In this document: one piece after another, positions 1 to 41,523 of the stretch | How positions within the stretch are numbered: position 1 is the first letter of the stretch | How the letters are laid out: each line of letters begins with the position of its first letter | Assembly: GCA_965212025.1 (NCBI GenBank) | Contig: OZ243039.1 | Coordinates: 879,216 to 943,215, forward strand | From: Candidatus Oxydemutatoraceae bacterium | GTDB lineage: Bacteria; Pseudomonadota; Gammaproteobacteria; Poriferisulfidales; Oxydemutatoraceae | Direction: 5' to 3' | Length of the DNA stretch: 64,000 nt | Position numbers and translations under genes: made by a program | Notes under the pieces: model-generated | Seen by the model: the letters and a program-made list of their open reading frames with translations, nothing else | What the model was told of the DNA's origin: nothing | Database searches by the model: none

Positions 1-51
1 GTACCATGGCTCACGCCATTACAAGGAGCCGACTCAGGCTCAGGAGAAAAC

Positions 52-573
52 ATGTTGATTCAGACAGTGGGAACGCAGAGCATAGGGGCAGACAGAAAGG
101 CGCACGGGAGGCGAGCGCGCCGGCATGGGCAACTGGGATTTTCTACACTGGAAGTCTTGGTGGCGACTGTGATGATTGCGACATTGGTCGCAGGGGGAAT
201 CTATTACGCGAATATTGGTGAAAAAATAAACGCTGTAAATTTGGTGTCTATCAAAACTTCGGCGGTCGTACGTTTTCCCGAAGCAATTACGACTTCGTAT
301 GCGCTGAGAAACACGCTCGCCAACGTGACCCGGACGCACCTATCCGATACGGGTTCTGTGAGAGAAGACAAACCGGTTCCGTGGGCCGTGGTGGCAGAGG
401 GAAATGATGACCCATACTCTGTCCAAATGCGGTTTACGTTGGATACACAGGGGCAGGCAGAAGCATTGAACGCTTATTTGAACGGCAATGCGCAAACGAC
501 TTTGATCAGTGACTCCAGAATGAAAAGCTGTAGCCCGAAATACTGCGTAGACGTTAAGTACGCCATTGACTGA
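52..573 (+). CDS. Type IV pilin / pseudopilin-like protein with a long basic leader peptide
   Basis: The N-terminus MLIQTVGTQSIGADRKAHGRRARRHGQLG|FSTLEVLVATVMIATLVAG contains a class-III (prepilin) signal, G|FSTLE, followed by a hydrophobic helix. The mature part is about 144 aa. A Cys pair near the C-terminus (SCSPKYC) resembles the pilin D-region disulfide. AGGAG lies upstream of the ATG. Confidence 0.5.
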   Translation: MLIQTVGTQSIGADRKAHGRRARRHGQLGFSTLEVLVATVMIATLVAGGIYYANIGEKINAVNLVSIKTSAVVRFPEAITTSYALRNTLANVTRTHLSDTGSVREDKPVPWAVVAEGNDDPYSVQMRFTLDTQGQAEALNAYLNGNAQTTLISDSRMKSCSPKYCVDVKYAID

Positions 574-1777
574 GACGGTTTCTCAAGCCATGTTTGATCG
601 CTTTTTTTCCGGACTGAGCTACTGGCAGCTGACTTACTGGGACAGGCATGCCCTCCAGGTTCAAAAGGTTTACGCCAGGAATCGTGCCCAGGCGCTGGAG
701 CAGGTCGGCATTCCGCGGGACCGGGTGGTGGAAATACGGCGGTCAGTACGGTTTTCCTGGCGGGATTTGGTGATTCGCAGAGCCAGCACCACGAATGCGC
801 AATTGCTTTTTCTGGTTCAATTCTCGGCCTTGCTTTCCAGTTACCGTAACCTTGGGATCAACTCCCTGATTCAGGCCAGCCCTGAGTTCAGGCGTATTGC
901 GGTAAAGAACCCCGAAGCGTTGCGTGAAGACTTGGGTTTTAGCGTGAAGTTGACGCATCTGGGGTTTCCGAGACCGGTCACCGCCATCGTCAGCGCTGGC
1001 GAAAAAACGGGTCGCGTCAAGGAATGCGTTGAGGAAGCAGTGAAGTATTTGAAAACGGAGCTGGATATTGAGCGTAAGTCTTCCAAACACCTGGTGTTAA
1101 GTTTTTTGCTGTTTGGTCTGAGCGTGTCGGTTTTTTTCGGATTGCCTTTGTTTATAGGCGAGCCGCTGGCAACCTTGCAGTCAATTGACGAGATTCACTT
1201 GTCAGCGACCTGGGCTACAGGTGTGCTTTTGGCTACCAGCGAATTGTTGCGTGATGACTGGCTGCTTTTGATTGTCGGCGTGCTCGCCTTCCTGGGTCTG
1301 TCCTGGTTCTTCAGGGAGCGGTTGCTTCGCGTGTACCCGTTCAGGATTTTCGAACGTTACGCCAATTGTTCCCGTTCCATACGCCTGTTGATGGTTTGGC
1401 GCCCGTATCGCTTGGCGGGAGTGCCGTTGGAGCAGGAAAGTGCGGTGTTAAGAGCGGTGCTGGGAGAAAAAACCGGAACACAATTGCTGGTCGCCATGAG
1501 GCGGGGGGTTTCCCTCTACAAAGGGCTTGACGGGAGGTATTTCAGCCCATCCCTGATTGCGGTGAGTGGCGAACTGGCAAACACCAATTCGGAGGACTTC
1601 GATCGTATAACCGGGGTGCTCCTGGACTCACTGAGCGAGGAAAAACAGCTGATTTCGGAAAAGCTCGCCGCGTCACTTTATCTGGCGAGTATGGCACTTG
1701 CTTTCGGGATGATCGCGTTTCTCGCGCTTGGCCTGATTTACCCCATTCTCGGTGCCACAACGGGGATTGCTTTGTGA
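566..1777 (+). CDS. GspF/PilC-family inner-membrane platform protein (type II secretion / type IV pilus)
   Basis: The product is 403 aa. Three predicted TM helices sit near residues 170, 220 and 380 (LVLSFLLFGLSVSVFFGLPLF, LLLIVGVLAFLGLSWFF, LASMALAFGMIAFLALGLIYPILG), which matches GspF topology. The start overlaps the upstream pilin gene by 8 nt, suggesting an operon. No motif-level match was verified. Confidence 0.4.
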   Translation: MTETVSQAMFDRFFSGLSYWQLTYWDRHALQVQKVYARNRAQALEQVGIPRDRVVEIRRSVRFSWRDLVIRRASTTNAQLLFLVQFSALLSSYRNLGINSLIQASPEFRRIAVKNPEALREDLGFSVKLTHLGFPRPVTAIVSAGEKTGRVKECVEEAVKYLKTELDIERKSSKHLVLSFLLFGLSVSVFFGLPLFIGEPLATLQSIDEIHLSATWATGVLLATSELLRDDWLLLIVGVLAFLGLSWFFRERLLRVYPFRIFERYANCSRSIRLLMVWRPYRLAGVPLEQESAVLRAVLGEKTGTQLLVAMRRGVSLYKGLDGRYFSPSLIAVSGELANTNSEDFDRITGVLLDSLSEEKQLISEKLAASLYLASMALAFGMIAFLALGLIYPILGATTGIAL

Positions 1778-2193
1778 ACTTTGGGCGTGGGCAGCCGAGC
1801 GATTCCTTGGTGGGGGGAAGGGGGTACACCATTCTGGAGCTGCTGTCGGTCATGGCGACTGTGAGCGGGGTGTTAATCATGATGTTTGTCAGTCTTGAGG
1901 GACGGATGCAGGCTCTTTCCTGGAGCAGTGCGGCCCTGCAAAGTCGCCATCTCGCCACCCGGAGCCAGTTTGTGGGTCTGCCTTCGGGTTTTACAACAAC
2001 TCTGAATGCCGGCAAGGTTGAAGTGACGGTGCTTCGCGACAGCAGCGGTGTGGGGGCAGTGCACTTTTCTGCGCCCACCGGGGTGTTGCCAGCCTGGGCT
2101 GTGCGAAGCGCGGGCGGTGGGCTCACGGTCTTTTCGCAGCCGGCAAACACGATCCGGGCGCAGATCGACAAGAAAATTCTTTATGAAGAATAA
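1774..2193 (+). CDS. Prepilin-type N-terminal domain protein (minor pilin/pseudopilin)
   Basis: MNFGRGQPSDSLVGGRG|YTILELLSVMATVSGVLIMMFV carries a prepilin cleavage/methylation-like motif and a hydrophobic helix. It overlaps the previous gene by 4 nt. Confidence 0.4.
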   Translation: MNFGRGQPSDSLVGGRGYTILELLSVMATVSGVLIMMFVSLEGRMQALSWSSAALQSRHLATRSQFVGLPSGFTTTLNAGKVEVTVLRDSSGVGAVHFSAPTGVLPAWAVRSAGGGLTVFSQPANTIRAQIDKKILYEE

Positions 2194-3124
2194 AAAACTT
2201 CTTGGCCAAGGTCGAACTTCCGGCTTTACGCTCCTGGAGGTCATGGCCGCCACGGTTTTACTCTCGTTGCTGGCGGTTTTCTTTTATGCGCCCCAAGTGG
2301 CATCAGACGCACTACGCTTGCGCCGTATGCAGGCGGAAGTGGCGGTTGAGGAAATGAACCGCGTCGCGTATCTGTCTCAGCAGTGGGTTCTGAACAGGGA
2401 TGGGCAATGGCCTGGACAAAGCGGTGGTTGTGTTCTGGCGATTGCTGAGTTGGCGAGCACGGGCTTATTTGAATTGTCCGCCGCACAATCGCCTTTTTTT
2501 CGCGCCGGGGTGAAACGTTTTCCACGAGGCGCGCCGCTTGCCAGAGGCGAATACGGTCGTTATTACACGAGTTGCGATGCGCGAGTGTTTTCTGTGTCGC
2601 TCATGCTGGATGCAGAAAATGCGAAATGGGGAGACTACATCGCCAATTTGCTGGTGGGTTCGCGAATCGGTCGACACGAAGGTGGGACAGTCGTTTCCGT
2701 CGTGGCAAACTGGCCTCTTCCGGGAGCGATTCCGGCACTGGCCGCGTATGTAAGAAGAGACGCCCCCGCTTTTACCGGAGCCATGGGTTCCAACGTTGAT
2801 CTTGGCAGGCATGCGATTCTCAGCGCCAGCGACGTGGTGCTGCACAACGGGCATTCTCTGGGCAAGACCCTTCATTACGGGGCACAGCTTACTCCCGGAG
2901 CGTCGGTTCCCGAGCCGAATTGTGCGCCCGGCCTGGAACCCCAGATACTGACATCTTTCAATCATCTTCTGCACCGTAGCGGCAAGCCGCTGCATCTTGC
3001 AGAAGCCACGGTGCAACGGCTTTCGGACGGATGGGTCGTTGGCAGCAGAACCGTGGACTCTGACGGCACACTTGACGTCAATAACAACAACGTCAGGATC
3101 AATGTGCTGATTTACTGTAGCTGA
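2183..3124 (+). CDS. Prepilin-type N-terminal domain protein, larger minor pseudopilin-like
   Basis: An internal start (MKNKKLLGQGRTSG|FTLLEVMAATVLLSLLAVFF) is chosen over the longer ORF from 2048. It has a GFTLLE class-III signal. The product is about 314 aa. Confidence 0.4.
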   Translation: MKNKKLLGQGRTSGFTLLEVMAATVLLSLLAVFFYAPQVASDALRLRRMQAEVAVEEMNRVAYLSQQWVLNRDGQWPGQSGGCVLAIAELASTGLFELSAAQSPFFRAGVKRFPRGAPLARGEYGRYYTSCDARVFSVSLMLDAENAKWGDYIANLLVGSRIGRHEGGTVVSVVANWPLPGAIPALAAYVRRDAPAFTGAMGSNVDLGRHAILSASDVVLHNGHSLGKTLHYGAQLTPGASVPEPNCAPGLEPQILTSFNHLLHRSGKPLHLAEATVQRLSDGWVVGSRTVDSDGTLDVNNNNVRINVLIYCS

Positions 3125-3141
3125 CCTTGATGGAGGAAATT

Positions 3142-3654
3142 ATGCAAAAACAACTGTTTATTTTTATCGTGCTCGCATTGCTTGCCGCCAAGGCCTTGGC
3201 CTTTAGCTACACGAGTTGTTTGGCCGAGTCACAAGCGGCTCCATACGACATGAGTGTGGTTGCTGCTGCGTCGGTCTGCGACGCAAAAACCCGGTCTGGG
3301 GGGAGAGGGAAAGTCGGCAACGTGCTGCACTCCCTTAGTCCGCCGGGAAGCACCCTCAGTGCTGCAGATTTTGCCAGGAATTTTGACGAATATCTCAATA
3401 AGGCGAATCTCCGCACTGCCATATGCTATGACGGTTGTACGTACAAAAAGGTCACAATGCAGACCAGAAGGTGCTCTGGGTACAGCCCCCGATGCAAGGA
3501 TTGGGTGACTCGGGAGGTCTCGACGTACGTGCCCCAGTGCCCCTCAGGTTATGAACTGTTGCCGAATACGCTCGGGAATCTGACCCGGGCACATACCAGC
3601 CAGTTGCATGGTCCTCATGATCCGATGCGAACGGCCTTGTGTCGAAAAATTTGA
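3142..3654 (+). CDS. Small secreted cysteine-rich hypothetical protein
   Basis: A Sec-type signal peptide, MQKQLFIFIVLALLAAKALA|FSY, is followed by about 9 Cys in a mature domain of roughly 150 aa. It is the last gene of the pilus-like operon. No recognisable family. Confidence 0.35.
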   Translation: MQKQLFIFIVLALLAAKALAFSYTSCLAESQAAPYDMSVVAAASVCDAKTRSGGRGKVGNVLHSLSPPGSTLSAADFARNFDEYLNKANLRTAICYDGCTYKKVTMQTRRCSGYSPRCKDWVTREVSTYVPQCPSGYELLPNTLGNLTRAHTSQLHGPHDPMRTALCRKI

Positions 3655-3804
3655 GGGTGGCTGTTGGGGAGGCAGCTTGGCGGTAAAAGCCGGAGAACCA
3701 TGAGATTTAGACTCAATAGACAGAGTTCCGGTTTTGCGTCTGACAGCTTGCTTCAGGAGGCAGTGGCAGTGCGTGACCTGAAAGAAATGTCGTTGCAGTG
3801 ATTT

Positions 3805-5628
3805 TCAGCGGTACTTTCCGTAAATTTGCGCAAGCGAAGCACGGTAGTGCTCAAAGATTTTGGCTCGCTTCAGTTTCATGGTGGGTGTCAACAGGTCATT
3901 TTCCACGGTCCAGGGTTCCTGATCCAGAATGATGCCTCTGATGGCGGCGTGTGAGGAGTATTGTTCTGACAGTTTGGTGAAACGCTTTTTGATTGCCTTG
4001 TGCAGTTTCGGGTTCTGCAACCGCTCCGGCGATTTTGGGTGGATTTCCAGATGTTCCAGTTCTTTGGCGAGCTGCGCTTCGGAGACGACGGCCAATGCGA
4101 CCAAAAACGCCTGTCCCTCGCCATACACCATGACTTGCGACACGAGGGGATCGGTGAGCAGTTTGCGTTCCACGTTTGTCGGGGGGATTTTTTCGCCATT
4201 GCTCATGACGATGATGTCCTTTAGCCTGCCGATAATCGATATTCTTCCGTCTCTGGAAATACTGGCCTGATCGCCAGTGTGTAGCCAGCCTTGCTGATCC
4301 AGTACTTGGGCAGTTGCCTCGGGCTTATTCCAGTACCCCAGCATGACGGAAGGGCCACTGACCAGTAACTCCTGATTTTTGCCGATCCGGACTTTGACTC
4401 CCGGAATGGCTTCCCCGATGCTGCCAGGCACTGTGTCCCCAGGGCGGTTCAGAGAGACGACCGGGCTGTTTTCAGTGAGCCCGTAGCCTTGGCAGACCAT
4501 GAATCCCAAGGCAAGCAGCTTTTTTTCGGTTTCCGGGAATAACGGCGCGCCACCGCTGATGGCGATTCGCAAGTGTCCTCCCAGTCCAGCGCGAACCCGT
4601 CTGGCAAACAGTCGGTCAAGCAGCGGCCACAAAGCCGCCACCACCCATTTTGAGACACCGGGTGCGCGTATCCGGTAACAGCAGTTCAACAGGCATTTCG
4701 CAAGCTTGCCTTTGTGGTTTGCCGTCGTTTCCACACGTGTCAGAAACTGTTCATAAATTCTCGGCACCGACACGAGCATGGTCGGTTTGAAACGTTGCAA
4801 GTCGGTGCCCAGCTCCGGGATGGAGCGGTTGAACGCCACTTGGGCTCCAACGTATAGCGCCAGATAGTAGCCGGCAGTTCTTTCAAAGGAGTGTGAAAGC
4901 GGCAAAAAAGACAGCAGCAGGTTGTTGTTGTCTATTTTGATCGCCGACGCCGTGGCGCAGACGTTGGCGAGGATGTTGCGATGTGAAAGCATCACCCCCT
5001 TTGGTGCGCCTGTCGTTCCGGAGGTGTAAATGATGGTTGCCAGTTGGTCTGGCTTGCTGCGTATGGGTTGGTGCAGCATGGACGTCGTTTCAGGCAACCA
5101 TGAATCCAGTTTGGCGACCCGTTTGTCCGGAACCCGAGCCCCGTTTTTTGGGACTCCTCGCAGATAGAGCACTTTCCTCAAAGTGGGCAGACTTTGAGGT
5201 GTGGGCAGCAGTTCCTGGGCGTGGCGCAGTTTGGGCAGCAGCAACAGGCTGGCACCAGAATCAGTGACAATGTGTGACCAGTTGGCAATGCTGTCATCGT
5301 GAAACAGCGGTACCGAGACCATGCCTGCGGCCAGAGCCGCCTGGTCAAAAGCAATCCATTCAACGCAGTTTCGTAAGGCGATGGCAACCCGGGTTCCGGG
5401 CAGGAGGCCTTGCCCGTCAAAAGCGTTTTTCCAGCGTGCTGCCCGTGCGGCCACTGTCCTCCATGTCCACTTCTTCCACTCTTGTTCTTCTTCCTGCCAT
5501 TGCCAGTAAGCAATGCGATCAGGTGTTTTCCCGACCCGGGCTGCAAATAAGGTGTGAAGCGTGTCCCGTTCCCAATTTATTTTTACTCGCCGACTGTCCG
5601 CTTCCATACCTGGCAATTCTATCCGCAT
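3805..5628 (-). CDS. Long-chain-fatty-acid--CoA ligase (AMP-dependent synthetase)
   Basis: AMP-binding signature YTSGTTGAPKGVMLSHRNI is present, together with a GYGLTE motif and an overall acyl-CoA synthetase layout. The ORF extends to 5790, so the start is ambiguous (5628 or 5607 are candidates). Confidence 0.8.
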   Translation of the reverse strand: MRIELPGMEADSRRVKINWERDTLHTLFAARVGKTPDRIAYWQWQEEEQEWKKWTWRTVAARAARWKNAFDGQGLLPGTRVAIALRNCVEWIAFDQAALAAGMVSVPLFHDDSIANWSHIVTDSGASLLLLPKLRHAQELLPTPQSLPTLRKVLYLRGVPKNGARVPDKRVAKLDSWLPETTSMLHQPIRSKPDQLATIIYTSGTTGAPKGVMLSHRNILANVCATASAIKIDNNNLLLSFLPLSHSFERTAGYYLALYVGAQVAFNRSIPELGTDLQRFKPTMLVSVPRIYEQFLTRVETTANHKGKLAKCLLNCCYRIRAPGVSKWVVAALWPLLDRLFARRVRAGLGGHLRIAISGGAPLFPETEKKLLALGFMVCQGYGLTENSPVVSLNRPGDTVPGSIGEAIPGVKVRIGKNQELLVSGPSVMLGYWNKPEATAQVLDQQGWLHTGDQASISRDGRISIIGRLKDIIVMSNGEKIPPTNVERKLLTDPLVSQVMVYGEGQAFLVALAVVSEAQLAKELEHLEIHPKSPERLQNPKLHKAIKKRFTKLSEQYSSHAAIRGIILDQEPWTVENDLLTPTMKLKRAKIFEHYRASLAQIYGKYR

Positions 5629-23524: not shown

Positions 23525-24272
23525 CCAACTGGCATCGTGCCGCCAACAAAATATTTTTTTTGGATTGTCTTGCCTGCAGTACGCACTTGTCACGGTCTGT
23601 AAGACCGGTATGTATTGTCCGGGCGACTGCCCAGTGACACAGCCTGCAATTTCACAAGCTGGTGGAATGTTCGTTGTGTCGCTGGTGCAGTAAGGCGTCC
23701 ATCCTGTCAGGACGGGTGTCTGTCATTTTTCCCGTGCGGCGTTTCTGCCATGGCCTTACAAAGTCTGGCTTAATGGCCAAGCCCCCATCTTCTTATAAAC
23801 ACCAAATACGCCCCTGAGTCACGTGGCCTTCATTAGAAAACAAAGTCTTTGAGCGCAAAAGCAAATATGGCGTTGAGGCGCCGAGTAGTCCCGAGCCTGA
23901 GGTTGGAGAACTTCTTGACGTGCCTGCTTTTCTGAATAAGCAGGCGGATTGACCAACTGGCATCGCGCCGCCAACAAAATATTTTTTTTTGGATTGTCTT
24001 GCCTGCAGTACGCACTTGTCACGGTCTGTAAGACCGGTATGTATTGTCCGGGCGACTGCCCAGTGACACAGCCTGCAATTTCACAAGCTGGTGGAATGTC
24101 CGTTGTGTCGCTGGTGCAGTAAGGCGTCCATCCTGTCAGGACGGGTGTCTGTCATTTTTCCCGTGCGGCGTTTCTGCCATGGCCTTACAAAGTCTGGCTT
24201 AATGGCCAAGCCCCCATCTGCTTATAAACACCAAATACTGCCCCTGAATCACGTAGCCTTTATCAGGAAACA
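23418..24272. repeat. Direct duplication of about 428 bp (2 copies) covering the last ~105 nt of ftsZ and ~320 bp downstream
   Basis: The sequence from about 23418 (TTTGAGCGCAAAAGCAAATATGGCG...) recurs nearly identically from about 23846. Copy 2 carries an in-frame FtsZ tail fragment (...FERKSKYGVEAPSSPEPEVGELLDVPAFLNKQAD*) with no start codon. Confidence 0.85.
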
Positions 24273-25460
24273 AAACCTTTTCGCGTCTTGCGCGCTTAAA
24301 AAACAAGCTGACTTGTGTCCCAACCCCACCGATACACTGCCTCAAGAAAACCACGCCCCCCCACTTTATAAACATCAAATACTGCCCCTGGATCGCATGG
24401 CTCTTATTAGAAAACAAAACCTTTTCGTGTCTTTTACGCTTAAAAAACAAGCTGACTTGTGTCCCAACCCCACCGATACACTATCTCAAGAAAACCACGC
24501 CCCCCCACTTTATAAACATCAAATACTGCCCCTGAATCACGTAGCCTTTATCAGGAAACAAAACCTTTTCGCGTCTTTCGCGCTTAAAAAACAAGCTGAC
24601 TTGTGTCCCAACCCCACCGATACACTGTCTCAAGAGAACCACGCCCCAACACTTTATAAACATCAAATACACCCCTGAATCACGTAGCCTTTATCAGGAA
24701 ACAAAACCTTTTCGCGTCTTGCGCGCTTAAAAAACAAGCTGACTTGTGTCCCAACCCCACCGATACACTGCCTCAAGAAAACCACGCCCCCCCTCTTTAT
24801 AAACACCAAATACGCCCCTGAATCACGTAGCCTTTATCAGGAAACAAAACCTTTTCGCGTCTTGCGCGCTTAAAAAACAAGCTGACTTGTGTCCCAACCC
24901 CACCGATACACTGTCTCAAGAAAACCACGCCCCCCCACTTTATAAACATCAAATACTGCCCCTGAATCACGTAGCCTTTATCAGGAAACAAAACCTTTTC
25001 GCGTCTTGCGCGCTTAAAAAACAAGCTGACTTGTGTCCCAACCCCACCGATACACTGTCTCAAGAAAACCACGCCCCCCCACTTTATAAACATCAAATAC
25101 TGCCCCTGGATCGCATGGCTCTTATTAGAAAACAAAACCTTTTCGTGTCTTTTACGCTTAAAAAACAAGCTGACTTGTGTCCCAACCCCACCGATACACT
25201 GTCTCAAGAGAACCACGCCCCACCACTTTATAAACATCAAATACACCCCTGAATCACATGGCCTTTATCAGGAAACAAAACCTTTTCGCGTCTTGCGCGC
25301 TTAAAAAACAAGCTGACTTGTGTCCCAACCCCACCGATACACTGCCTCAAGAAAACCACGCCCCCCCACTTTATAAACATCAAATGCTGCCCCTGAATCA
25401 CATGGCCTTCATTAGAAAACAAAACCTTTTCGCGTCTTTTACGCTTAAAAAACAAACAGA
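24222..25460. repeat. Tandem array of about 8.6 copies of a 143/144-bp unit (minisatellite-like)
   Basis: Successive starts of TTATAAACA fall at 24222, 24366, 24510, 24654, 24797, 24940, 25084, 25228 and 25371, giving periods of 144,144,144,143,143,144,144,143. Units are over 90% identical. The first ~60 nt of the unit is homologous to the end of the 428-bp duplicated unit. Confidence 0.9.
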
Positions 25461-25498
25461 CTTGCGCGTTTTTCCGGTTATTAAGTTTGCGTATGTCT

Positions 25499-27094
25499 TC
25501 AGCGAACCATACCGCCCAAAAAGACTTTCAGGCGCAATATTGGCTCTGGCTCTTCCAGCACCTGGATCAGGGGAATCAGGCTGCCAGAGTGACTCACTCC
25601 TGGCGCTTCAGCCACGCTGTTCCGGGGGAACGCCCGGACTTCGTGTTCAGCACCACCCGGCACTCCCCAAAAATTCACCATGCCAGCTTCTGCCGATGTC
25701 GGCAAATCAATATGCTGCTCCATTATCAGATCTCCAACTGACAGTTGTATCCGGCACTTCAGGTCAAGCGGCACTTCATCAACTGCGGTTGCAAAGTCAG
25801 CATGGTGCGTGGCGCGTCCATAACCGTCATCTCCCAGATATTTCAGGTGTACCCGTACATGGCCATGTGCTTCGGATGTCAGTTGCATGGCCAATGTCCC
25901 TTCAAGAACGTCGAGCAAAGTAAATGCCGCCGTGCCCATCGCGCCTGCTCCGGCGCGGTTGACTGCCTGGAGCGAATAGCGTATCTGCCCCCCTCCTGCG
26001 TACGCCTCGCGTAGCTGCGCCAAGGCATGGCCTGACAGCACATAAGAAGTGCCGGTTCCCGCGATGGTATAGCGTTTTCTGTCCAGGGAAAGCCGGTAGC
26101 TGTCTATCGTCGCCCCGTTGCTGCTCGCCGCTTCCCAACCCAGGTTCACCCGATTTGTGGACTTCCATCTGGCCCGCAAACCTGAAGGTCTGCCAGGCAC
26201 CGCTATGGTGCTGAACGTGCCCCAGTTTTCGGATCCCCGGGCGAGCACCCCAACGCCCTTTCGGTTACTCGCGTAGACCTGTAAGCCATAGCTTCTGTAC
26301 GGCAGCAAGTGACCAATCTCAATCTCAGTGGCAAAGGTACCTGACGGGAAAAAAGTCTCGGTGCTGCGCCCTGCAGCACTCACAACCACCACGTAGCCAA
26401 AACCAGAGCCCGCAGCGCGATCAGGAGAAGCCGCAGGCGCATCGACCGCCAGGGAAGCGCAACCGTCACGTCTCATGGTCGCCAGCACCAGGCGAGCAGT
26501 GGTCTGCCCAGGCACAAGCTCCGTTATCGTCGTCGTGCCCGGAAGCCCCGGCAAATGGAAGTGACCGGTTGCGGGGTAGCCAACGACATCTCCGTGCACA
26601 GCGCGCAGCTGGTACGGGTGGGGGCAAGCCCCTTGGCTGTTTTCCCGAAACCCGGCCAGAAAATCTCCGTCAAAGTCAAAAGTCAGCGCTGTGACTTTCC
26701 GCATTGTTCCTGCCAGCTTGAGTTCGTAGTAATCGACCGCTGAACTTCCCGCCGCCCACGTGAAGCGCAGGTGATCCAGAGATTCCCAGCTCACCGCCAA
26801 ATCAACCGGTGTGGCAGGAATATCGGCAAGCGCACGCAGCAATGGCAGCGTGTGGGCATTGCCAAAATGCCAGGCTCCCGGTTCCCAGCCGGCATAAGTC
26901 GTGGCACCTTCGCATACCTGCCCCGCCACGGTCGGACAACGCAGCTGGGTCAGAGTACGGGGTGAAGCGCCACCCGTTGGGCCACTGCCCACCAAAGCTG
27001 CCCTCGCAGACACGGGGGCGTAACTGCGGTCAATCGCAGCGTCCGGACTCAGAATGGCCCACCAGACTGCCGATGCTGCCCGATTCCCCAACAA
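25499..27094 (-). pseudogene. C-terminal continuation of the giant GLUG-repeat protein, separated from the upstream ORF by a frameshift
   Basis: The N-terminal part (...AIDRSYAPVSARAALVGSGPTGGASPRTLTQLRCPTVAGQVCEGATTYAGWEPGAWHFGNAHTLPLLRAL) continues the module pattern of the 2909-aa ORF. The two frames overlap at 27030-27094. Fn3-like segments follow. Confidence 0.6.
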
Positions 27095-30000
27095 CAGGGT
27101 TCACCGCATAGCTGTCCTGAATTCGGTGGACATTGGTTCCGACCAGCCCCCCGGTGTAGGAACGGCCCTGTACCGTACCGAGCGCATAGCCCGCATGGAC
27201 AGAACCGGCGTTGAAGCCCACCAATCCACCAACACGCTCATCCCCGCTGACCGACACGTCGGCATAGCTGTATGCAATGGTGCTATTGCTGAAGCCAACC
27301 AGACCGCCGACGTGATCCCCTTCCTCAGCGGTGGCCGAACCTGTCGCATAACAGTGCAAAATCGTGCTTCCATGGCTGTAGCCAACCAGGCCGCCGGCGT
27401 AGTCCCGCCCTTCACCCGAGACGATCACCGCCGCGTCAGCACTGCTGTGCAAAATGGTGCCCCCCCGGATCCGACCGATCAAACCACCGGCAGACTCAAT
27501 CCCGCGTACCTGCGAAGCCCTCACCGTGCTGCCCACGACCCGACCTTTCCCTTTCACATAACCAACCAGGCCGCCGACGTATCTGCCTCCATCAACCACG
27601 GCACTGGCGCCACTGTTGACCAGCAACCCCCCGTTGCTACCTACCAACCCGCCAACACCGGTACCGACCGTGCTAAAAACCTGTGCAGACTTCACGACGC
27701 TGTTCATGACAGTCCCCCCGTTAAAGCCGACCAAGGCTCCGACTCTGTTTTTCCCCCTTACCCGTGCGTCAACGAGCACCACCCCCTTGACAGTCCCGTC
27801 TTCTGCAAGCCTGGAAAACAGGCCAACCTCGTCCGTTTGCGGGCGGTCAATGTACAAGGCAGAAATTTGCCGTCCTGCCCCGTCGAAGGTGCCTGAAAAA
27901 TTCTCTATCGGATGAAAGCCGGCACCGCCTTGCCACTCCCGACTCGGGCCGGCGTCTATGTCTGCCGCCAGTACGTAGTGGGCCTGCAGATCAGAGCGCA
28001 CGTCCTGTAACTGGCACAACGTGGCAATTTGCCACGGGTTGTCGCTGCTGCCGTCACCCGGCGCGCCTTTCAGACCTTTGCCGGCGCATTCCGGAAAGCG
28101 GGTCACCGTCCGGATCGTTGACGGCGACCCGGTGCCCACCGTGTTATGGGCGAAGGCTTCCAGCCGATATTCAAAGGCACCCACCAGTTCCGCAAACTCC
28201 ACTGTGACCGGGCTCAAAGGATCCACCGGCGCAACGTCGCGTTCCTGTACCAGCTCCCCGGACGCATACAGGCGTATCCGGTAAGCCAAACGCAAAGCCA
28301 CGCCTTCCGCAGGCGCTGCGTAACCGGCGTCACCCGGCCTGCGGCCATAACCATCATTGGAAGGGGGTGCAAAGCTGAGTCTCAGCGTGGAGATCCCCGG
28401 CACCACCCGCACATCAGCCGGAGAACCGGGAACGTCCAGCAGGCGCACGGAAACACGGGCGGCTTCGCCGACACCGTAAAGGTTGTAGCCACGAACCGTT
28501 AAAAGGGGCGTGCTCCCGCCTTCATGGTCAGCGCGCAGCTTCTGCAGCCAGTCCGGTTCCGCCATGAAGTAATCCGAGAGCGTCTCCCCGGAAAGCGCTC
28601 CACTTTCCACGCGGTGACCGATTCGTTCACGTCCGTCCAATGGGCGTTCCCAGCGCAGCAGCAAGACAGACGGGGATTTCCACTGTGCCTGCAGGCGCAA
28701 GGGTTTGCCGGGAGTCTCAAAGCCACGCAGAACCGGCAGCGCATTGTGATCGCCGAAGGACCAGACCTCGGCACTCCAGCCCAAGTACGTTGACCTTCCC
28801 GCACACGCCAGGCCAGGGGCGGTGGGGCAGCGCAGCTGCTGTAGTGTCCGCAGGGAGACTGATCCCTGCACGGTGTCATCTGCCACAAAAGGCACGATGC
28901 CAGCATTGACGCGGGTCAATCCTGCTGCATGGCTGTCGACGATGCTTCCCGGGCTGTTGCCGGCAAAGCTTCCGGGCTGTCCGACTCCGGACACCGACCC
29001 TGCCGCGTAGCTGCGGCTGACGGTGCCCTGGTTGTTCGCCACAAGACCCGCAACCAGACCTTTCCCAATCACAGAGGCTGTTGTGTAACTGTCAGTCACC
29101 GAGCCCTGGTTGTCTGCAACCAGACCACCCGCCAGGGCTGTTCCCGACACCAAGCCTCCGGCATGACTCGTGGCGATGCTCCCGCCTGTCAGGTTTTTTC
29201 CGACCAGGCCACCCGCGACCTGGGATCCCGGCTCCATCGTCAACCGGGCCGCGCTGCCTCTGATCACGCCTGCGTTAATGCCAACGAGTCCTCCTGCAAC
29301 CTGCCCGCCAAAAAGTGAACCTGTTGCTCCACTGTTCACGACCCTGCCTCCCACGTTCCTGCCCACCAGGGCTCCCACGTTGACGCTTCCCCAAAGCTGC
29401 GCGTTCACCAACACGACCTGCTGCAACAGACCGTCCTGAAGCTGCGCAAACATGCCGACATCTTCCAGTATCCCGGAGCGCACCCTTAAATGGAAAATCC
29501 GATAGCCGGCACCATCAAGGGAACCGGAAAAACCGGTGATCGGCGCAAAGCCTTCCCCGGCCCGCCAGTTCCGGGATGGACCTGCTTCAATATCGCCTGC
29601 CAGCCAGTAGTGGGCTGCAGGGGCGGAGCGAATATCCTGCAATTGGCACAGCGTGGCAATCTGCCAGGGATCGTCCTCGCTGCCCTCACTGTCCGGGCCG
29701 CTTGCCGATGCCAGGGCTTCCCCGTCGCACTGCCAGGGACGGGTAAATACCGGCAGGGAAAATGACGGTCCTTCCCCAATCCTGTTATAGGGCGTCGCCA
29801 CCACTTCATAGCGGCTGTCGCCTGCCAAACCCGAAAATTCCACGGCCGCAGATGTTTCTCCGTCTGTGTGCGTACGCTCCCGTTCCTGCACCGGTTCCCC
29901 CCCGGCGTACAGCCGTACCCGGTAGCCCAGACCTACGGAAACCCCGGCACCCGCATATCCGTATGCCGGGTCTTCCGGTGACTGGCCATAGCCGTCGTCA

Positions 30001-33000
30001 GCCGGAGCCATAAGCAACACACGCAGCGAGAACGCCTGCGCCGATGCCCGAACGGCTGCCAATTTACCTGGGGACTCCAGCAGCTCGATCGCAACCGCCG
30101 TTGCTTCACTCATGCCATGACGGTTATATCCACGTACGCTGACCTGCAGGGAGTTACCGCCCCCATATTTGGAACGGAGGCTTTGCAACACGTGCCCGCC
30201 GAGCGTAAAAAACGTGGACTCTGTTTCCAGGGAATACCCTGCCACCTCCACCCAATAGCCGGCGTTCAGGCTTCCTGTTTTCGCGGCTGTCCAACTCAAT
30301 TCCAGCTCATCTTCCAGGTTCCATTTCGCCTGCAGGCGGGAAGGGGAAGCTGGTGGCACCGGTTGCAGGGCGCGATGGACCGGAAGCGTCTGCCCGTCTC
30401 CGAAATACCAGACTTGGGTGCTCCAGCCGGAGTAACTGGCCGCTCCCTGGCACGTGTCTCCCGGCGAAAGGGGACACTGCAATTGCGCCAGCGTGCGGGA
30501 AAAACTGCTTCCTGCGGCGGCGGCGTCCCCGCTGCCCACGGGTTCCAGTGCGTTGCTGTCGGCACTCGGTTCCAGGGCGTAATTCGCAGCCATGCCGGTG
30601 CCAGTAGAGCGCCCCACCAGTGTGCCCACCTGATCATTCCCACTGACCAGGCCAGTCGCATAACTGTCCAAAATCCTGCTGTTATTGTTGGTGCCGAGTT
30701 CACTGTTTCCCACCAGTCCGCCTACCCGCTCATTTCCGCTGACCGGCCCGGTTGCGTAGCTTTCCCCGAGCCAGGACACATTGCGCCCCACCAGGCCACC
30801 CACAGCTCTTTCCCCGTTGACCGTTCCCGCCGAATAAGATCCGCCTATGAGACCAGAGCTATAACCTGCCAACCCGCCTACCTGCCCACTTCCGGTGACA
30901 GATCCGGTCGCGTGGCTACTGAGGATTGACCCAAAGCTTTCTCCTACCAGCCCTCCCACACCTCCTTTCCCGTTGACTGTTCCTGCCGAATAAGATCCGC
31001 TTATAAAGCCACGGTTAGAACCCGCCAGCCCGCCCACAGAATAATGCCCGTTTACTGCTGACTGCGCGTAACTGTGAAAGAGCGTAGCCCAATTGAGCCC
31101 CACCAGCCCACCAACATGTTCTACCCCGCTCACACTTCCTCTCGCGTGGGAACTGCGAATCCTCGCGCCCGTGAAGTTACTGCCCACCAATCCGCCTGTC
31201 ATAATGCTGCGACCCCAGGCACTAACGGTAGACTCCGAATAGCTGAGCTCAATCAACCCACGGTTCTCACCTGCCATTCCTCCCACACGATTCCGCCCGA
31301 CTGTCAACCCCGTCACCGTGCTGCCCTTGATGCTTCCATTCGCCTCAACGCGTCCTGCCAGAGCCCCTACTGCATCTCTGCCCCGCACCGTGACATCCAC
31401 CAGCGCCAGGTTTTGCAGGGAACCGCCGCTGAGCCTCCCGAACAGCCCGACATAGTCTACTGGCCCGGGATTGATCATGAGATTCAGAACGCTGTGGCCA
31501 CTCCCGTCCAGAGAGCCGGAAAAATATTCAATCGGAGGAAATCCCTTCCCGTCCCGCCAACCGTGGCTTTGCCTCGCGTCTATATCGTTTGCCAGCCGAT
31601 AATGCGCTGCCGTGTCATAACGTATTTCCTGCAGCTGGCAAAGTGTGCCGACCTGCCATGGATCATCCTCGCTGCCGGAGCCTGCTGCCGTTACCACCGC
31701 TGCCCATGGACATGCCTCAACGTAGGTGAAAAGCAGCACTTCCACCGTTGGGGTTGCGCCCGCTTTGTTTTTGGCAAATACCTTGACTTCGTACCTGGAA
31801 CTATCTTCCAGACCTGAAAATTCCACTACGGTCGAATTTGACCATCCCTGTTGTGTTACGCGCCGCTCTTCCTTCAACCGACCTTTTGAAAACAGCCGCA
31901 CGTGGTATGCCAGATCCAGGGCAATTCCGCCTGCCGGTTTCCCGTACATGCTGCTGCCCGGGGCACGTCCGTAGCCGTCACCGGCAGCCACGACAATGGT
32001 GACCCGTACCGTCGACAGCCCTGAAGCTGTCTGGATTTCCACCGCCCCCGGAACGTTCATTAAATGGAAACTCCCCGACGCTGCATCTCCCGCAACGCCT
32101 CCTCTGCTGCCGCGTATGGAATAATGGATTTCACTGCCGCCTGCGTAACGCCCACGCAATTCAGCCATCAATGCACTGCCAAACGTAAAACGGGATGCCC
32201 TGGCATCCCGAATGATTCCGTCCACCTCCACCTCAAAGAAATTAACGGCAGCTCCCCGATGCTCCCACCGCAGTGCCCATCTACCCTTCCAATTCCAGCC
32301 TGCCCGGACTGCAAGTGGTGCAGCGGGAACATCCGTAATTGCCCGGAGCACAGGCAGCGTGCGGGAGTGCCCGAAATGCCAAATTCGTGTATCCCAATCC
32401 AGATATACGCCAGCTGCCAGGCAAAGGTTGACGGGTTCTATCGAACACTTCATTTGCTCCACGGTGCGTAAGTCACTGTCCTGTACTGTGCTGTCATTCC
32501 TGCCCACGAGGCTATCCCCGTTGCCAAGCCTGCTGGCATAACTGCGGGCTATCGTGCCACTGTTGACTCCGACCAGCCGGCCTGTCAAAACAGCTCCGCC
32601 TACAGCACCGGTGCTATAGGCGCTTCTGACCGAACCGCTGTTTACCCCCGTCAGTCCGCCTGTCTGACTGTCTCCGGTGACTCTGCCTTGTGCATGGCTA
32701 TCACTGATGATTCCTTTGTTTTCACCGACCAGACCGCCGACTTGCTTCTTTCCACGTACTTCCCGGTATGCATAGCTATTCACGATGCTGGCGTTGCCTT
32801 CGCTCACACCCACCAAGCCCCCAATCCCGGAGGCTGTTCCGACAACCTCAGTATCCGAGTGGCTGCCACTGATGATGCCGCCAAGGTGCCAACCAACCAG
32901 GCCGCCGACTTGACTGTCTCCGGTCACTCTGCCTTGTTGTGCATGGCTACCACTGATGCTTCCTTTGTTTTCGCCAACCAGGCCGCCGACTTGACTGCCT

Positions 33001-37910: not shown

Positions 37911-38918
37911 TTATTCGACTAACATATAGTCCCCTTCTTTTTTTCTCAAGTCTGCATAAATTTTGTCTGTGACCCGGTAGAGCCAGGGTCGCAGTTTTTT
38001 GTCCCGGATTTTGGCTTCGAGTCGGTTTTCTGCGTCTGCCGTGGCGAGTGCGGTGGAACTGATGGCAAACCAAGGCTGCGAATTTTCCATGTAAGCGTCT
38101 ATTGTGACAACCTGCCCATTGAAGGTTTCGTACACCGCCCTGACAGTGTTACGGGGCAAATCCCTCACCGTACTTTCCCGGCTTTTCACATCCAGAAAAT
38201 TTAAGGGATCCACCAGATAGCTGATTTCATTCAGGGCATTTTCATTGACGGTGGTTTCCGATGGCAGGGAGACAATGCTTAGACTCCCAAGGGCTTGTTC
38301 GCGCTGAATGAACAGGGGACGCACATGGTTATCACCGGTAATTTTTATTTCTCTGATATCTCCGGCGAGCAGGCTTAGAACCAGATTATCGACCCAGTCC
38401 AGCGCTTTCTCCGGTACTTTCAGCGACCGGTTTATCAGCCAGACTACATCTTGCCCGTAAATCCTGACGAAACGCGCATCGTCCATTTTTCTGCTGGTCT
38501 TGCCTATGATCAACTGCCATTGATCCTCTCCGTACATGCTGAAGAGAGTATTTTTTGCACCCGGATCCTGCGGGTCTTTAACCCCCAGTTCTCCGTAAAA
38601 CCTGCTGTCATCTGTTTTTCGTTCAATGATTTTTGCTTCCAGAATCTCTTGCAGAAGTTTCCTGATTTTGTTGGTGTCCGCAGGATAGCCAGCCAGTTCC
38701 GAAACTTCCCATCCGCGTTCAAAAGAACGCTTGATTTCGGTCTTTTCACCTTCTCTCTGTATGACGATCTTCGTCAAACTGTTCAGACTTATGAGTGAGA
38801 AATTGGCAAAAAGCGGATCCTCGCCAGTGGCGTAGATCTCTTCTTTTTCTGCCCGGAAAAAGAAGATTGCCATAACGGTCAGGACGATGCCGAGTATCAG
38901 CAACAGAATGTTTCTCAT
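37911..38918 (-). CDS. DUF4340-like protein, last gene of the GldG-type ABC operon
   Basis: It has an N-terminal TM segment (MRNILLLILGIVLTVMAIFFF) and is a ~335-aa periplasmic-type protein. Its start overlaps the GldG-like gene stop by 4 nt. Confidence 0.45.
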   Translation of the reverse strand: MRNILLLILGIVLTVMAIFFFRAEKEEIYATGEDPLFANFSLISLNSLTKIVIQREGEKTEIKRSFERGWEVSELAGYPADTNKIRKLLQEILEAKIIERKTDDSRFYGELGVKDPQDPGAKNTLFSMYGEDQWQLIIGKTSRKMDDARFVRIYGQDVVWLINRSLKVPEKALDWVDNLVLSLLAGDIREIKITGDNHVRPLFIQREQALGSLSIVSLPSETTVNENALNEISYLVDPLNFLDVKSRESTVRDLPRNTVRAVYETFNGQVVTIDAYMENSQPWFAISSTALATADAENRLEAKIRDKKLRPWLYRVTDKIYADLRKKEGDYMLVE

Positions 38919-40792
38919 ATCAAAAGATTCCTCTTGCGTTTTCTGAACAGGGCGACGATAAGTGCCACGAGTACTACCAGTGCGGGGATCATGCCGATGT
39001 TGAAAATTTTGAGCCGAGTGCCCAATTCTTCTATGTCTTTATTCTGTTCATGGCGTACTTCGCGGAGTTTTTTGCGAACGAGCACGACATTTTCTCTGAA
39101 TTTGTTGATTTCTCTTTGCTGTTCTGCCGTCAGCAAAGGGGAGTTTGCGTCACTGCGTTTGGCTTGCAACTCGGCTAACTTGTCTTCGGTTGTCCCCAAC
39201 TCCGCTTGCAGCTTCTCTTCGGTATTCCGATAGCGTTTATTCGCGGCGTTTTCAATTTCTGAAACGCGCGTGAAGGGACGGAAAAATGCTTCGCGCCCGC
39301 GAATGCCCAACAAGTCTGAGCTACCGGACAAATTCTCAAGTACGTTGAGTACGAAGGTGCCGTTGCCAGCGAAAGCCTGCACAACGCGTTGGCCGAAAAA
39401 AGATTGCACGTTGACCCACATGCGGTCGCTCAGTATGTCCACGTCCGCAACCACTACCATATTTGCTGGCGACTGCGTGTTTTTCAGGTGCGTGGATGCC
39501 GTGTCTGGTGCCACAGGAGGGGTTTCAAAAGCGCTTTTCAGGTCAGCCGATATTCTGGCGATGAGGCTGAGATTCGGTTCCTTTTTCGCGCCTCGAAATA
39601 TGTTGTGCAGCATTTCCTGCGAAGACAGAAAGGGAGCCGAGGAGACGGACAGCAGTGCCGAGTCCTGCCCGGTATGAACCAAGGCTTTCAACTGAATTTT
39701 TGAGTCGTCCGGGTAGGGTTTCACGTATGAGCTCAGCGCGAAATTGAGTATCTGAAGGTGCTGCATGACGACGTCTTTTTTATCGAAATCCGCTTTGATC
39801 ATACCCAACATGGAGAAATGGTCGAAACGTTGCTGGCTTTGCGTACTGACCTGCAGTGAGCGTGGTGGATCTGCGACGATTCTCTCCGGAACCTCAAACC
39901 CCCATTTTCGAAACAACCCATTCAGCGAAGAGCCCCGCTTTTGCGGCGAGGCAGGATCCTGTGCTTGCAGGGGGGTGGGATCCACTTCGGCGAAAGGGTC
40001 AACGAAAAACAGCGCGCGGCCACCACGCATGACAAATTGATCAATTGCGTACAAGGTTTTGGGTTGCAAGTCTTTGGGGTGAACCACCATCAGCACTTTG
40101 GCTTCCGGGTCAATGGTCTCGACGGTCTGGTGGATCAGGCGAAGATCAAAGAGCTGGCGTATTTGTTCGGCAATGACCCATGGGTTGTTGCGTTGCCCGG
40201 TGGTCGTGTCAATGGCGGGAGGCAACATATCCAGCGATGTCATCAGGGCGACCACCGGCCGTTCTGTTTCCACGAGCCGGTAAATCATTTTGTCAATTTC
40301 GTATTCCAGAAGATCTTCTTTTTCCGGTCGCAAAAACGGAATGACTTCAACTCCGTCCAGGGAATTGCTTGCCGCCAAGCCAAAATACAGCACTTCGCCG
40401 TTGGGCAAGGCGACAGCCTGTATTCCCAAGCGGGTTGCACGGTCTTCAATTTCCGAGAAAGGCTTCGGGTCAGCAAAATGCAATTTTATGTAGCCATGGG
40501 AGTTAGCGGCGAACTCTTCGAGTATTTCACGGACCCGGAGCGCGTAATTTCTGATTTCCGGACGATCCTTCGAGGCTTCCTCCGAGAAAAAAAAGTAGAA
40601 ATTCAACGACGAGTCCAGCTTGTTCAGCAGCCGGTATGTCCCTTCGTTGAGCGTGAACAACCTGTCTTCGGTCAAATCCAGTTTGTAGCCTTGCAAAGTC
40701 AGGTTGCTCAGAGCGATCAGCGTGACGAACAACACGGCCAGTAATGGCAAGGTCAAGGCGTGATCTAAACCCTGCAACTTGAATCTGTTCAC
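38915..40792 (-). CDS. GldG-like ABC-transporter auxiliary component
   Basis: The product is 625 aa with N- and C-terminal TM segments, a large extracytoplasmic domain and a C-terminal coiled-coil/TM region (KLQAELGTTEDKLAELQ ... IGMIPALVVLVALIVALF). It is translationally coupled to the ABC permease. Confidence 0.55.
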   Translation of the reverse strand: MNRFKLQGLDHALTLPLLAVLFVTLIALSNLTLQGYKLDLTEDRLFTLNEGTYRLLNKLDSSLNFYFFFSEEASKDRPEIRNYALRVREILEEFAANSHGYIKLHFADPKPFSEIEDRATRLGIQAVALPNGEVLYFGLAASNSLDGVEVIPFLRPEKEDLLEYEIDKMIYRLVETERPVVALMTSLDMLPPAIDTTTGQRNNPWVIAEQIRQLFDLRLIHQTVETIDPEAKVLMVVHPKDLQPKTLYAIDQFVMRGGRALFFVDPFAEVDPTPLQAQDPASPQKRGSSLNGLFRKWGFEVPERIVADPPRSLQVSTQSQQRFDHFSMLGMIKADFDKKDVVMQHLQILNFALSSYVKPYPDDSKIQLKALVHTGQDSALLSVSSAPFLSSQEMLHNIFRGAKKEPNLSLIARISADLKSAFETPPVAPDTASTHLKNTQSPANMVVVADVDILSDRMWVNVQSFFGQRVVQAFAGNGTFVLNVLENLSGSSDLLGIRGREAFFRPFTRVSEIENAANKRYRNTEEKLQAELGTTEDKLAELQAKRSDANSPLLTAEQQREINKFRENVVLVRKKLREVRHEQNKDIEELGTRLKIFNIGMIPALVVLVALIVALFRKRKRNLLI

Positions 40793-41523
40793 GACGCCTT
40801 CCGCTGTTCAAGGACAATCACATTGGCCGTCAGCCAGAAAGCAATCATCAGCAGGAAAAAGACAAAGTCCTGCAAATTGATGACTCCTCTGCTGATGGCC
40901 GCAAAATGAGAATAGAAGCTCAAGGAAGAAATCGTGTCTACGACTACCTGAGGGAACCATAGCTGGAAAAAATCCAGAACCAGCGGCAGGCTGCTTAGCA
41001 GAAAAGTAAAGCAAATGACCAGGCTGACGATGAAAGCGATCACTTGGTTTTTTGTGCTCGCCGAAATGCAGGAGCCAATTGCCAGGTAGGATCCGGACAT
41101 CATAAAGCTGCCTAGGTAGGCAGCGAGTATCGCTCCGTTGTCAGGCGACCCAAGGTAGTTCACGGTGAGCCAGATCGGGAATGTGAGTGCCAGAGCCAAA
41201 GCCAGGAAGAGCCAGGCGGCAAGGAACTTTCCCAGCACCGCCTGCGTCATGGTGATTGGCAGTGTCATGAGCAATTCTATGGTGCCCGTTTTGCGTTCCT
41301 CTGCCCAAAGACGCATGGTGATGGCGGGTATCAGGAACAGGTACAGCCACAAATGGAAATTGAAGAAGGGAACCAAGTCTGCCTGGCGACGTTCGTAAAA
41401 GCCGCCCAGATAAAAAGTAAATGAAGCGCTCAGCACGAGGAAAATCACAATGAACAAATAAGCCAGCGGCGAAGTGAAATAGCTTGCCAGCTCACGACGC
41501 ATGATGGCCAGAATAGTACTCAT
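40789..41523 (-). CDS. ABC-2 family transporter permease (GldF-like)
   Basis: The 244-aa protein has about 6 TM segments. It is overlap-coupled to the ATPase upstream. Confidence 0.65.
   Translation of the reverse strand: MSTILAIMRRELASYFTSPLAYLFIVIFLVLSASFTFYLGGFYERRQADLVPFFNFHLWLYLFLIPAITMRLWAEERKTGTIELLMTLPITMTQAVLGKFLAAWLFLALALALTFPIWLTVNYLGSPDNGAILAAYLGSFMMSGSYLAIGSCISASTKNQVIAFIVSLVICFTFLLSSLPLVLDFFQLWFPQVVVDTISSLSFYSHFAAISRGVINLQDFVFFLLMIAFWLTANVIVLEQRKAS

Follow-up and report, generated by a model that had tools for sequence, protein, structure and literature searches.

The first five genes of the DNA analysed here, a 64,000-nt stretch from Candidatus Oxydemutatoraceae bacterium (the window; GCA_965212025.1, OZ243039.1, positions 879,216–943,215, forward strand), are most probably the last five of a self-contained type IV filament (T4F) operon of eleven genes. 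In this reading of window positions 1–3654, to which we assign a probability of about 65%, the first ten genes of the operon belong, as a chromosomal copy, to a T4F family that stands apart and is uncharacterised, and the small Cys-rich protein encoded by its last gene would be displayed or released by the pilus. The genes of the cassette are numbered c01–c11 in operon order, and the compared loci, from other genomes, plasmids and metagenome scaffolds, L001–L013. L001, L002/L003 and L004 are the syntenic loci of sponge-symbiont relatives, L008 is a distant chromosomal copy (63% GC, other flanks), L011 and L012 are the cassettes of a Methylophaga plasmid and of pQBR103, and L007 and L009 lie on TARA-labelled metagenome scaffolds.

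Between positions 52 and 3654 the window holds five open reading frames (ORFs), all in the same direction, preceded by the end of the ATPase gene (aa, amino acids; a slash marks the prepilin or signal-peptide cleavage site):

1–58, plus strand: 3′ end of the extension ATPase gene, last 19 codons; matched by alignment to the end of the ATPase gene in L002 and L001.
52–573, plus strand: major prepilin, 173 aa; conserved ATG and AGGAG, pilin profile matches, orthologues.
590–1777, plus strand: GspF/PilC-family platform protein, 395 aa; PF00482 T2SSF, conserved ATG 590.
1774–2193, plus strand: small minor prepilin, G/YTILE, 139 aa (from GTG 1774) or 127 aa (from GTG 1810); motif, frame conservation.
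2183–3124, plus strand: large minor prepilin, 313 aa, G/FTLLE; N_methyl/TIGR02532 above cut-off.
3142–3654, plus strand: Cys-rich secreted protein, 170 aa, 8 Cys; predicted Sec-type signal peptide, conserved family.

A preliminary description of this DNA had proposed a pilus or secretion operon cut by the window edge, and the 58 nucleotides of ATPase gene at that edge bear this out. The three class III motifs that it listed, G/FSTLE, G/YTILE and G/FTLLE, are present at the ORF starts, each followed by about 20 hydrophobic residues, and a regular-expression search for such motifs in all six frames of the 64 kb window returned these three prepilins and one false match within MraY. The prepilin genes are not consecutive, as had been stated: the platform gene lies between the first and the second. 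All five window genes are under purifying selection, with ratios of non-synonymous to synonymous substitution rates (dN/dS) of 0.12–0.55; the large minor pilin has the lowest values and the Cys-rich gene the highest. The GC content of the cassette equals that of the genome around it. From the selection and the GC content we regard the genes as functional. Downstream of the cassette lie a convergent acyl-CoA synthetase gene and then the dcw cell-division cluster, beginning mraZ-rsmH-ftsL-ftsI. A promoter and terminator scan of window positions 1–4000 gave nothing above chance.

The long basic leaders on which the preliminary description laid weight are real and conserved. The major prepilin begins MLIQTVGTQSIGADRKAHGRRARRHGQLG/FSTLEVLVATVMIATLVAGG, with a basic leader of 29 aa (nt 52–138), cleavage at G/FSTLE and a mature chain of 144 aa that starts with Phe and carries a C-terminal CSPKYC loop. 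Its ATG and the AGGAG before it are kept in three genomes, where the leaders measure 29, 29 and 18 aa (the last in L001); in the distant L008 the leader is 21 aa. The ATPase stop codon, TGA at 56–58, overlaps the pilin ATG at 52 in the sequence ATGTTGA. The protein aligns lengthwise with its orthologues in L001, L002 and L008 and with plasmid homologues, a search with its family profile hit solved pilins in their alpha1 helix (E=8e-7 to 1e-3), and its dN/dS is 0.16–0.36. The two cysteines of CSPKYC had been likened to a pilin D-region; they form a 4-residue loop that is missing from L008 and the plasmid homologues, and we rejected that assignment because the pair is absent across the wider family. 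Two observations concern the annotation of this junction. A 1-nt indel between window 1–58 and L002 9413–9470 lengthens the ATPase frame of the window by 10 codons. At L008 6974–7459, the public gene call cuts the major pilin short and gives the ATPase a long C-terminal tail; the true pilin start there is an ATG behind AGGAGG, overlapping the ATPase tail in another frame.

The second window gene encodes the platform protein. The likeness to GspF/PilC proposed for it holds: the protein matches Pfam PF00482 (T2SSF) at 34.6 bits, above the gathering threshold of 25.2, has weak NCBIfam matches to XpsF, ComGB, GspF, HofC and PilC, and is predicted to have three membrane helices; its profile found no match in the PDB. 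Its ORF opens at TTG 566, which would give 403 aa and an overlap with the pilin gene that had been read as translational coupling. This start was rejected, since in L002 the TTG is not in frame. Conservation points to ATG 590, 16 nt past the pilin stop, and the proposed coupling by overlap is not supported. Close relatives of the platform protein are rare, three among 5.8 billion proteins, at 100, 87 and 71% identity.

Two minor prepilins follow. The small one carries G/YTILELLSVMATVSGVLIMMFV, and its leader depends on the choice of start: GTG 1774, which overlaps the platform stop as GTGA, gives 17 aa, the length first proposed, and an internal GTG at 1810 (ATG in relatives) gives 5 aa. The frame is open from the GTGA in four genomes despite a 3-nt indel, and the internal site is likewise a start codon in all of them. 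The homologues in L006 and L008 begin at an ATG that overlaps the platform stop, with leaders of 11–13 aa; because of this the comparison favours the long form. Its dN/dS is 0.35–0.48. The large minor prepilin, from ATG 2183, begins MKNKKLLGQGRTSG/FTLLEV and overlaps the preceding gene by 11 nt. Its leader is 14 aa here and 14–16 aa in all homologues compared. Of the three leader lengths first given (29, 17 and 14 aa) the first and the last are secure. The protein has 4 conserved Cys; a pilin domain at its N-terminus is followed by a C-terminal module specific to the clade (about residues 224–313), with the strongly conserved blocks ASDVVLHNGHSLGK and CAPGLxPQILxSF. Its alignment takes in a relative at 42% identity; a scan of metagenome contigs with this alignment found no relative, and its profile found no match in the PDB. 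At 0.12–0.26, its dN/dS is the lowest of the five genes.

Exact-sequence look-ups with the window's proteins gave no match, and the genomic context of these genes was read from the relatives with 87% and 71% identity in the platform protein. Two of its three relatives belong, by their genome records, to Gammaproteobacteria: one is an uncultured Ca. Porisulfidus sp., the other a Ca. Oxydemutatoraceae bacterium. Both are described in the literature as sponge symbionts. The full order of the cassette is a small periplasmic protein, a lipoprotein secretin, a bitopic 291-aa protein, 140-aa and 213-aa proteins, the ATPase, the major pilin, the platform, the small minor pilin, the large minor pilin and the Cys-rich protein. 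The upstream half, as seen in L001, L002/L003 and L004, comprises:

c01: 157-aa protein with a signal peptide.
c02: secretin with a lipobox, 508–512 aa; PF00263, E=1.5e-14.
c03: 291-aa protein with one central membrane helix.
c04: 140-aa protein.
c05: 186–213-aa protein.
c06: GspE/PilB-family ATPase, 535 aa; PF00437, E=2.7e-86 (L002).

The ATPase that had been expected upstream is thus there, together with the secretin, in every syntenic relative (L001, L002, L003 and L008), and L008 holds all eleven genes. Class III prepilins, a GspF/PilC platform and a PilB/GspE-family ATPase, by which membership in the T4F superfamily is judged, are all present (the full ATPase gene in L001, L002 and L008). 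The prepilin peptidase, also among these marks and also expected upstream, was not found in the cassettes or in the 64 kb window. A tyrosinase-family gene lies about 1.6–2.7 kb upstream of the cassette in L001 (930–2291) and L002 (1–1155). Immediately 3′ of the Cys-rich gene, an RNase P RNA gene (RF00010, 143–323 bits) is found in L007 (1199–1533), L013 (781–1139) and L008 (10525–10681); because it adjoins the cassette in three distant lineages, we take this to be a conserved chromosomal site. The window contains no RNase P RNA, and the cassette there adjoins the acyl-CoA synthetase gene and mraZ instead.

The closest counterparts of the first ten genes are found on plasmids. A tblastn search of plasmids with the secretin matched nearly its whole length in 157 records, of which 131 are from Pseudomonas, and an identical ten-gene order occurs on a Methylophaga thalassica plasmid (NZ_CP143310) and on pQBR103. 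BLASTP matched c01–c04, c06–c08 and c10 to plasmid proteins at 20–38% identity; c05 and c09, the small minor pilin, were matched to the plasmid cluster through position and alignment only. In a neighbour-joining tree with limited taxon sampling, the family ATPases are monophyletic (95.5% bootstrap). Judged by gene order and protein similarity, the first ten genes are a chromosomal member of an unnamed, megaplasmid-type T4F family. In the literature the plasmid cluster figures only as 10 genes for a putative type IV pilus (PMC4989453, PMC7070040), and it is itself functionally uncharacterised.

The plasmid clusters of pQBR103/pQBR57, the pBT2436-like megaplasmids and the Methylophaga plasmids share with the window cassette not only the ten genes and their order but also longish major-pilin leaders (12–17 aa) and the absence of a peptidase gene from the cluster. 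They also differ from it, and the identities are low (20–38%). The window copy is chromosomal, in the genome of about 1.9 Mb of a sponge symbiont, whereas these relatives are on plasmids; the large minor pilins differ in their C-terminal module, the plasmid proteins aligning to residues 1–223/253 of the window protein only; and the window cassette has the Cys-rich gene as an added eleventh, without counterpart in the plasmid clusters. The surroundings of the plasmid cassettes also vary. The Methylophaga cassette (L011 17084–19383) has a second large minor pilin (350 aa), a PilT-like ATPase (320 aa) and a LysM protein, and radical-SAM genes follow that of pQBR103 (L012 17945–19530). The window cassette has no retraction ATPase.

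The Cys-rich protein is a conserved member of the operon and not a chance neighbour. Its gene has a likely start at ATG 3142 with GGAGG 6 nt before it, and the product has a predicted Sec-type signal peptide with cleavage at ..AKALA/FSYTSC. The small, signal-peptide-bearing protein that had been placed at the end of the operon is confirmed, except that it has 8 Cys and not 9; all 8 are conserved in three orthologues.

A word-indexed search returned close orthologues only, and an exhaustive HMMER search of 1.84 billion representative proteins added ten further Cys-rich relatives of 132–169 aa. By alignment the protein is a member of a new family with sizes of 132–170 aa. Across 12 homologues, A-1, F+1 and C+6 around the predicted signal-peptidase site are invariant, and the family has six core Cys and the motifs APYNMS, CPxGY and YHGRYxIRsglC; the clade of the window has an insertion with two additional Cys. 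Searches for the family found no relative in Pfam, in the PDB or on the plasmids. A 475-aa repeat protein (P0019) that the HMMER search returned at E=6e-4 was taken as spurious.

The gene stands immediately downstream of the large minor pilin homologue wherever the context is readable, that is, in the window clade and in L006, L007, L008, L009/L010 and L013. The plasmids lack this gene, and their large minor pilins lack the C-terminal module, so that gene and module occur together and only together. At a dN/dS of 0.30–0.55 the gene is the fastest-evolving of the five, and it has been tandemly duplicated in two lineages, as diverged paralogues at L007 256–678 and 689–1126 and at L009 909–1337 and 1342–1851.

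These observations are consistent with the following mechanism. The long basic leaders would be cut by a prepilin peptidase encoded elsewhere, and the 144-aa pilin would be polymerised by the ATPase and the platform under the two minor pilins, which would form a priming or tip complex; the fibre would leave the cell through the lipoprotein secretin. The Cys-rich protein would be exported by the Sec pathway and fold with up to four disulfides; the C-terminal module that is particular to this clade's large minor pilin may then capture its conserved mature N-terminus, Phe1, and the protein would be displayed at the pilus tip or released during extension, as TcpF and CofJ are by type IVb pili. Its probable role would be attachment to, or interaction with, the animal host. 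In the type IVb systems, TcpB recognises TcpF through a free N-terminal Phe1 and Tyr5 (motif FxxxYxSxS), CofB recognises CofJ through its N-terminus, and both proteins are carried through the secretin as the pilus grows (PMC9565799). TcpF Phe1 docks into TcpB, and the Cys-rich family too has an invariant Phe1. The analogy with TcpF and CofJ, drawn in the preliminary description from gene position, has thereby gained some circumstantial support, although homology was not found. A TcpF/CofJ-like, pilus-dependent role of the Cys-rich protein is plausible, and display or release by the pilus is the best available explanation because of the invariant Phe1, the strict linkage to the module, the fast evolution and the tandem duplications.

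A number of results weigh against this account. Pilus assembly by any member of the family is something we infer from the genes. No prepilin peptidase was found in the cassette or flanks of any relative or in the plasmid clusters, and a search of the 64 kb window for the GxGDxK motif of A24 peptidases found none; the enzyme would be encoded elsewhere in the genome. The Cys-rich family has no sequence similarity to TcpF or CofJ. Cys+6 would probably tie the N-terminus to the core, a difference from TcpF and CofJ, whose N-terminal segments are long and flexible. Structure prediction lends no support either: AlphaFold gave poor models both for the Cys-rich protein (from 2 sequences; predicted local distance difference test score, pLDDT, 39.8) and for the large minor pilin (from 4 sequences; pLDDT 48.4), and these were not used as evidence; in a Foldseek search with the poor minor-pilin model the top three matches were TcpB, at non-significant scores (E=0.04–0.05, TM-score 0.2).

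The same results leave room for a real pilus whose neighbouring Cys-rich protein is neither cargo nor tip factor. It might then assist this clade's machine in the periplasm or at the outer membrane, for instance as a chaperone of the C-terminal module of the large minor pilin, or be secreted independently and only share the transcript. The linkage is genetic only, and co-occurrence with the module would fit a folding or stabilising partner equally well; the missing homology to TcpF and CofJ, the poor models and the position of Cys+6 near the N-terminus point the same way. We nevertheless consider this unlikely. The highest dN/dS of the operon together with tandem duplication in two lineages is a pattern met more often among exposed proteins that face the host than among helpers of assembly, and an invariant mature N-terminal Phe would be unexpected in a generic periplasmic protein.

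Another possibility is that the cassette encodes a genuine but divergent type IVb pilus, of the Tcp/Cof/Bfp/IncI-Pil clade, with the Cys-rich protein as the counterpart of TcpF and CofJ. The build of the cassette recalls such systems. The toxin-coregulated pilus of V. cholerae (TCP; TcpB–TcpF) and colonization factor antigen III of ETEC (CFA/III; CofB–CofJ) are likewise encoded in a compact single operon with a long-leader major pilin and a lipoprotein secretin; in both, as here, a gene for a small periplasmic protein precedes the secretin gene, three accessory genes lie between those for the secretin and the ATPase, the minor pilins are few and include one large one, and the operon contains a Sec-exported non-pilin protein. 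The IncI (R64-type) thin pilus, PilL–PilV, also has, in this order, a secretin lipoprotein (PilN), accessory proteins, an ATPase, a platform and a pilin, with a large C-terminal adhesin-type minor pilin (PilV) after them. The type IVb build, with all parts in one compact cluster (PMC10191384), describes the cassette well: 11 genes in a single cluster (ten in the plasmid form), major-pilin leaders of 18–29 aa, and no PilMNOP or HIJK minor-pilin set. The secretin, a 512-aa lipoprotein, gives a near full-length but weak match to the PilN type IVB model, and among the type IVb references its family profile scores best against IncI PilN (73 bits).

Against this stand most of the protein comparisons. 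The ATPase core is 41% identical to GspE and 30–31% identical to CofH and IncI PilQ; among solved structures, GspE gives it a score of 210 bits and BfpD one of 136; and in the neighbour-joining tree, with its small sampling, the family groups with type IVb ATPases in 15% of bootstraps and with GspE, PulE and HofB in 31%. Profiles of c01, c03, c04 and c05 show no match to the Cof (CofC/E/F/G) or IncI Pil (PilM/O/P) proteins. Searches of the PDB with the accessory-protein profiles, including those of c03 and c05, found no match, and searches against Pfam none except, for one c05 homologue, a weak match to T2SSB (GspB; E=2.7e-4). The mature major pilin is small, 144 aa compared with about 206 aa for CofA and about 190–200 aa for type IVb mature pilins, and begins with Phe, and its profile matches mostly the alpha1 helices of type IVa pilins and of the type II secretion system (T2SS). 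Compared with TCP and CFA/III, the order of the pilin genes relative to the platform gene differs, a peptidase of the TcpJ/CofP type is lacking from the cluster, the accessory proteins are without detectable homology, and the Cys-rich protein (about 150 aa mature, 6–8 Cys) is unrelated in sequence to TcpF and CofJ. Compared with the IncI thin pilus, the shufflon, the PilU peptidase and the PilT transglycosylase are missing, PilM/O/P are not detectably related, and the IncI ATPase is 28–30% identical to the family ATPase. Leader length and gene clustering, moreover, do not discriminate between subtypes (PMC10191384). The type IVb likeness put forward in the preliminary description thus survives for the build (long leaders, compact cluster, lipoprotein secretin, few minor pilins) and not for the ATPase or the accessory proteins. 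As far as these comparisons go, the cassette is type IVb-like in architecture and not a demonstrated type IVb member, with an ATPase clade that has no firm connection to either type IVb or T2SS/type IVa motors, and we rate true membership of the type IVb clade as quite unlikely.

The affinity of the ATPase to GspE raises the converse question, namely whether the operon encodes a dedicated, T2SS-like secretion machine that builds no surface pilus and uses a short pseudopilus in the periplasm to drive the Cys-rich protein out through the secretin. With the T2SS (GspC–M) the window type shares the GspE-similar ATPase, a GspF-family platform, prepilin-type subunits and a secretin; the plasmid pilins are publicly annotated as 'type II secretion system protein', the c05 homologue mentioned above gives its weak GspB match, and the operon encodes a Sec-exported, disulfide-rich candidate substrate. 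Yet no family match to GspC, GspL or GspM was found, there are three pilins in place of the five pseudopilins G–K, and the secretin is a short lipoprotein that scores 26.6 bits against the GspD model, for which the cut-off is 351. The plasmid members, furthermore, have no Cys-rich gene, so that the ten-gene core did not evolve for this cargo. We consider such a machine improbable. The best NCBIfam match of the secretin, MshL, reaches 86 bits against a cut-off of 250 and covers the C-terminal half only, and no other Msh family was matched, which argues against membership in the mannose-sensitive haemagglutinin (MSHA) pilus group. Because the comparisons place the cassette in none of the type IVb, T2SS and MSHA groups, we file it under the megaplasmid-type T4F family.

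That the cassette serves cell-to-cell DNA transfer (mating-pair stabilisation like that of the IncI thin pilus) or DNA uptake, and not host interaction, is very improbable: relatives do lie on large plasmids, pQBR103 is typed MPF_I, whose IncI members have a type IVb thin pilus, and the megaplasmid papers count the cluster among transfer-related genes, but the window copy is chromosomal beside the dcw cluster with host-like GC and no transfer genes nearby, distant chromosomal relatives occupy the conserved site by rnpB, most cluster-bearing plasmids are typed non-mobilizable, and the role on plasmids is likewise a proposal from gene content.

A broader form of the preferred reading, a display or delivery pilus of the megaplasmid type, can be offered tentatively. 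The ten-gene core could represent a seventh bacterial T4F lineage, shared by antibiotic-resistance megaplasmids and marine invertebrate symbionts, in which the symbionts gained a matched pair: a novel module at the C-terminus of the tip minor pilin, and a novel family of small disulfide-rich proteins recognised through a free N-terminal Phe. The pair would serve pilus-dependent delivery or display of a host-interaction factor and would have arisen independently of TcpB–TcpF and CofB–CofJ. We regard this as possible, and well short of an even chance.

Elsewhere in the window, on the minus strand, a 2909-aa ORF (27030–35759) contains many GLUG motifs, fn3 domains and an M26 IgA1-protease N-terminal region, and adjoins the gene of a 531-aa fn3 protein (25499–27094, minus strand); GC here is 0.59–0.63, compared with about 0.54 elsewhere. 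The giant ORF looks like a surface or adhesin-type protein and was possibly acquired horizontally. At about 24000–26000 the GC skew flips sign, with a cumulative maximum near 24 kb; the change falls where the dcw genes on the plus strand give way to the giant gene on the minus strand, and may reflect a replication landmark or gene-strand bias. The ORFs at 24091–24678 and 25258–25923 had no Pfam matches. An ABC-type transport cluster (38915–42503, minus strand; ABC_tran, ABC2 membrane, ABC_transp_aux/DUF7088, DUF4340) resembles a gliding-associated, Gld-type auxiliary system.

Two points are new here, as far as gene content and similarity can establish them: the family link between this cassette and the megaplasmid clusters, and the co-occurrence of the minor-pilin module and the Cys-rich protein in marine host-associated bacteria. 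The first connects chromosomal systems of symbionts associated with sponges, and probably with corals, to a pilus cluster that is conserved in the backbone of Pseudomonas megaplasmids of clinical importance and is itself unstudied. Work in a tractable Pseudomonas plasmid host could thus help in understanding symbionts that cannot be cultivated, and vice versa. The second, through the linkage of the Cys-rich gene to the minor-pilin module, predicts pilus-dependent export or display of a small protein, of the kind found in cholera and ETEC pili, outside the enteric pathogens. Finally, that 11 genes are kept under purifying selection in genomes reduced to about 2 Mb suggests that the machine matters for the symbiosis.

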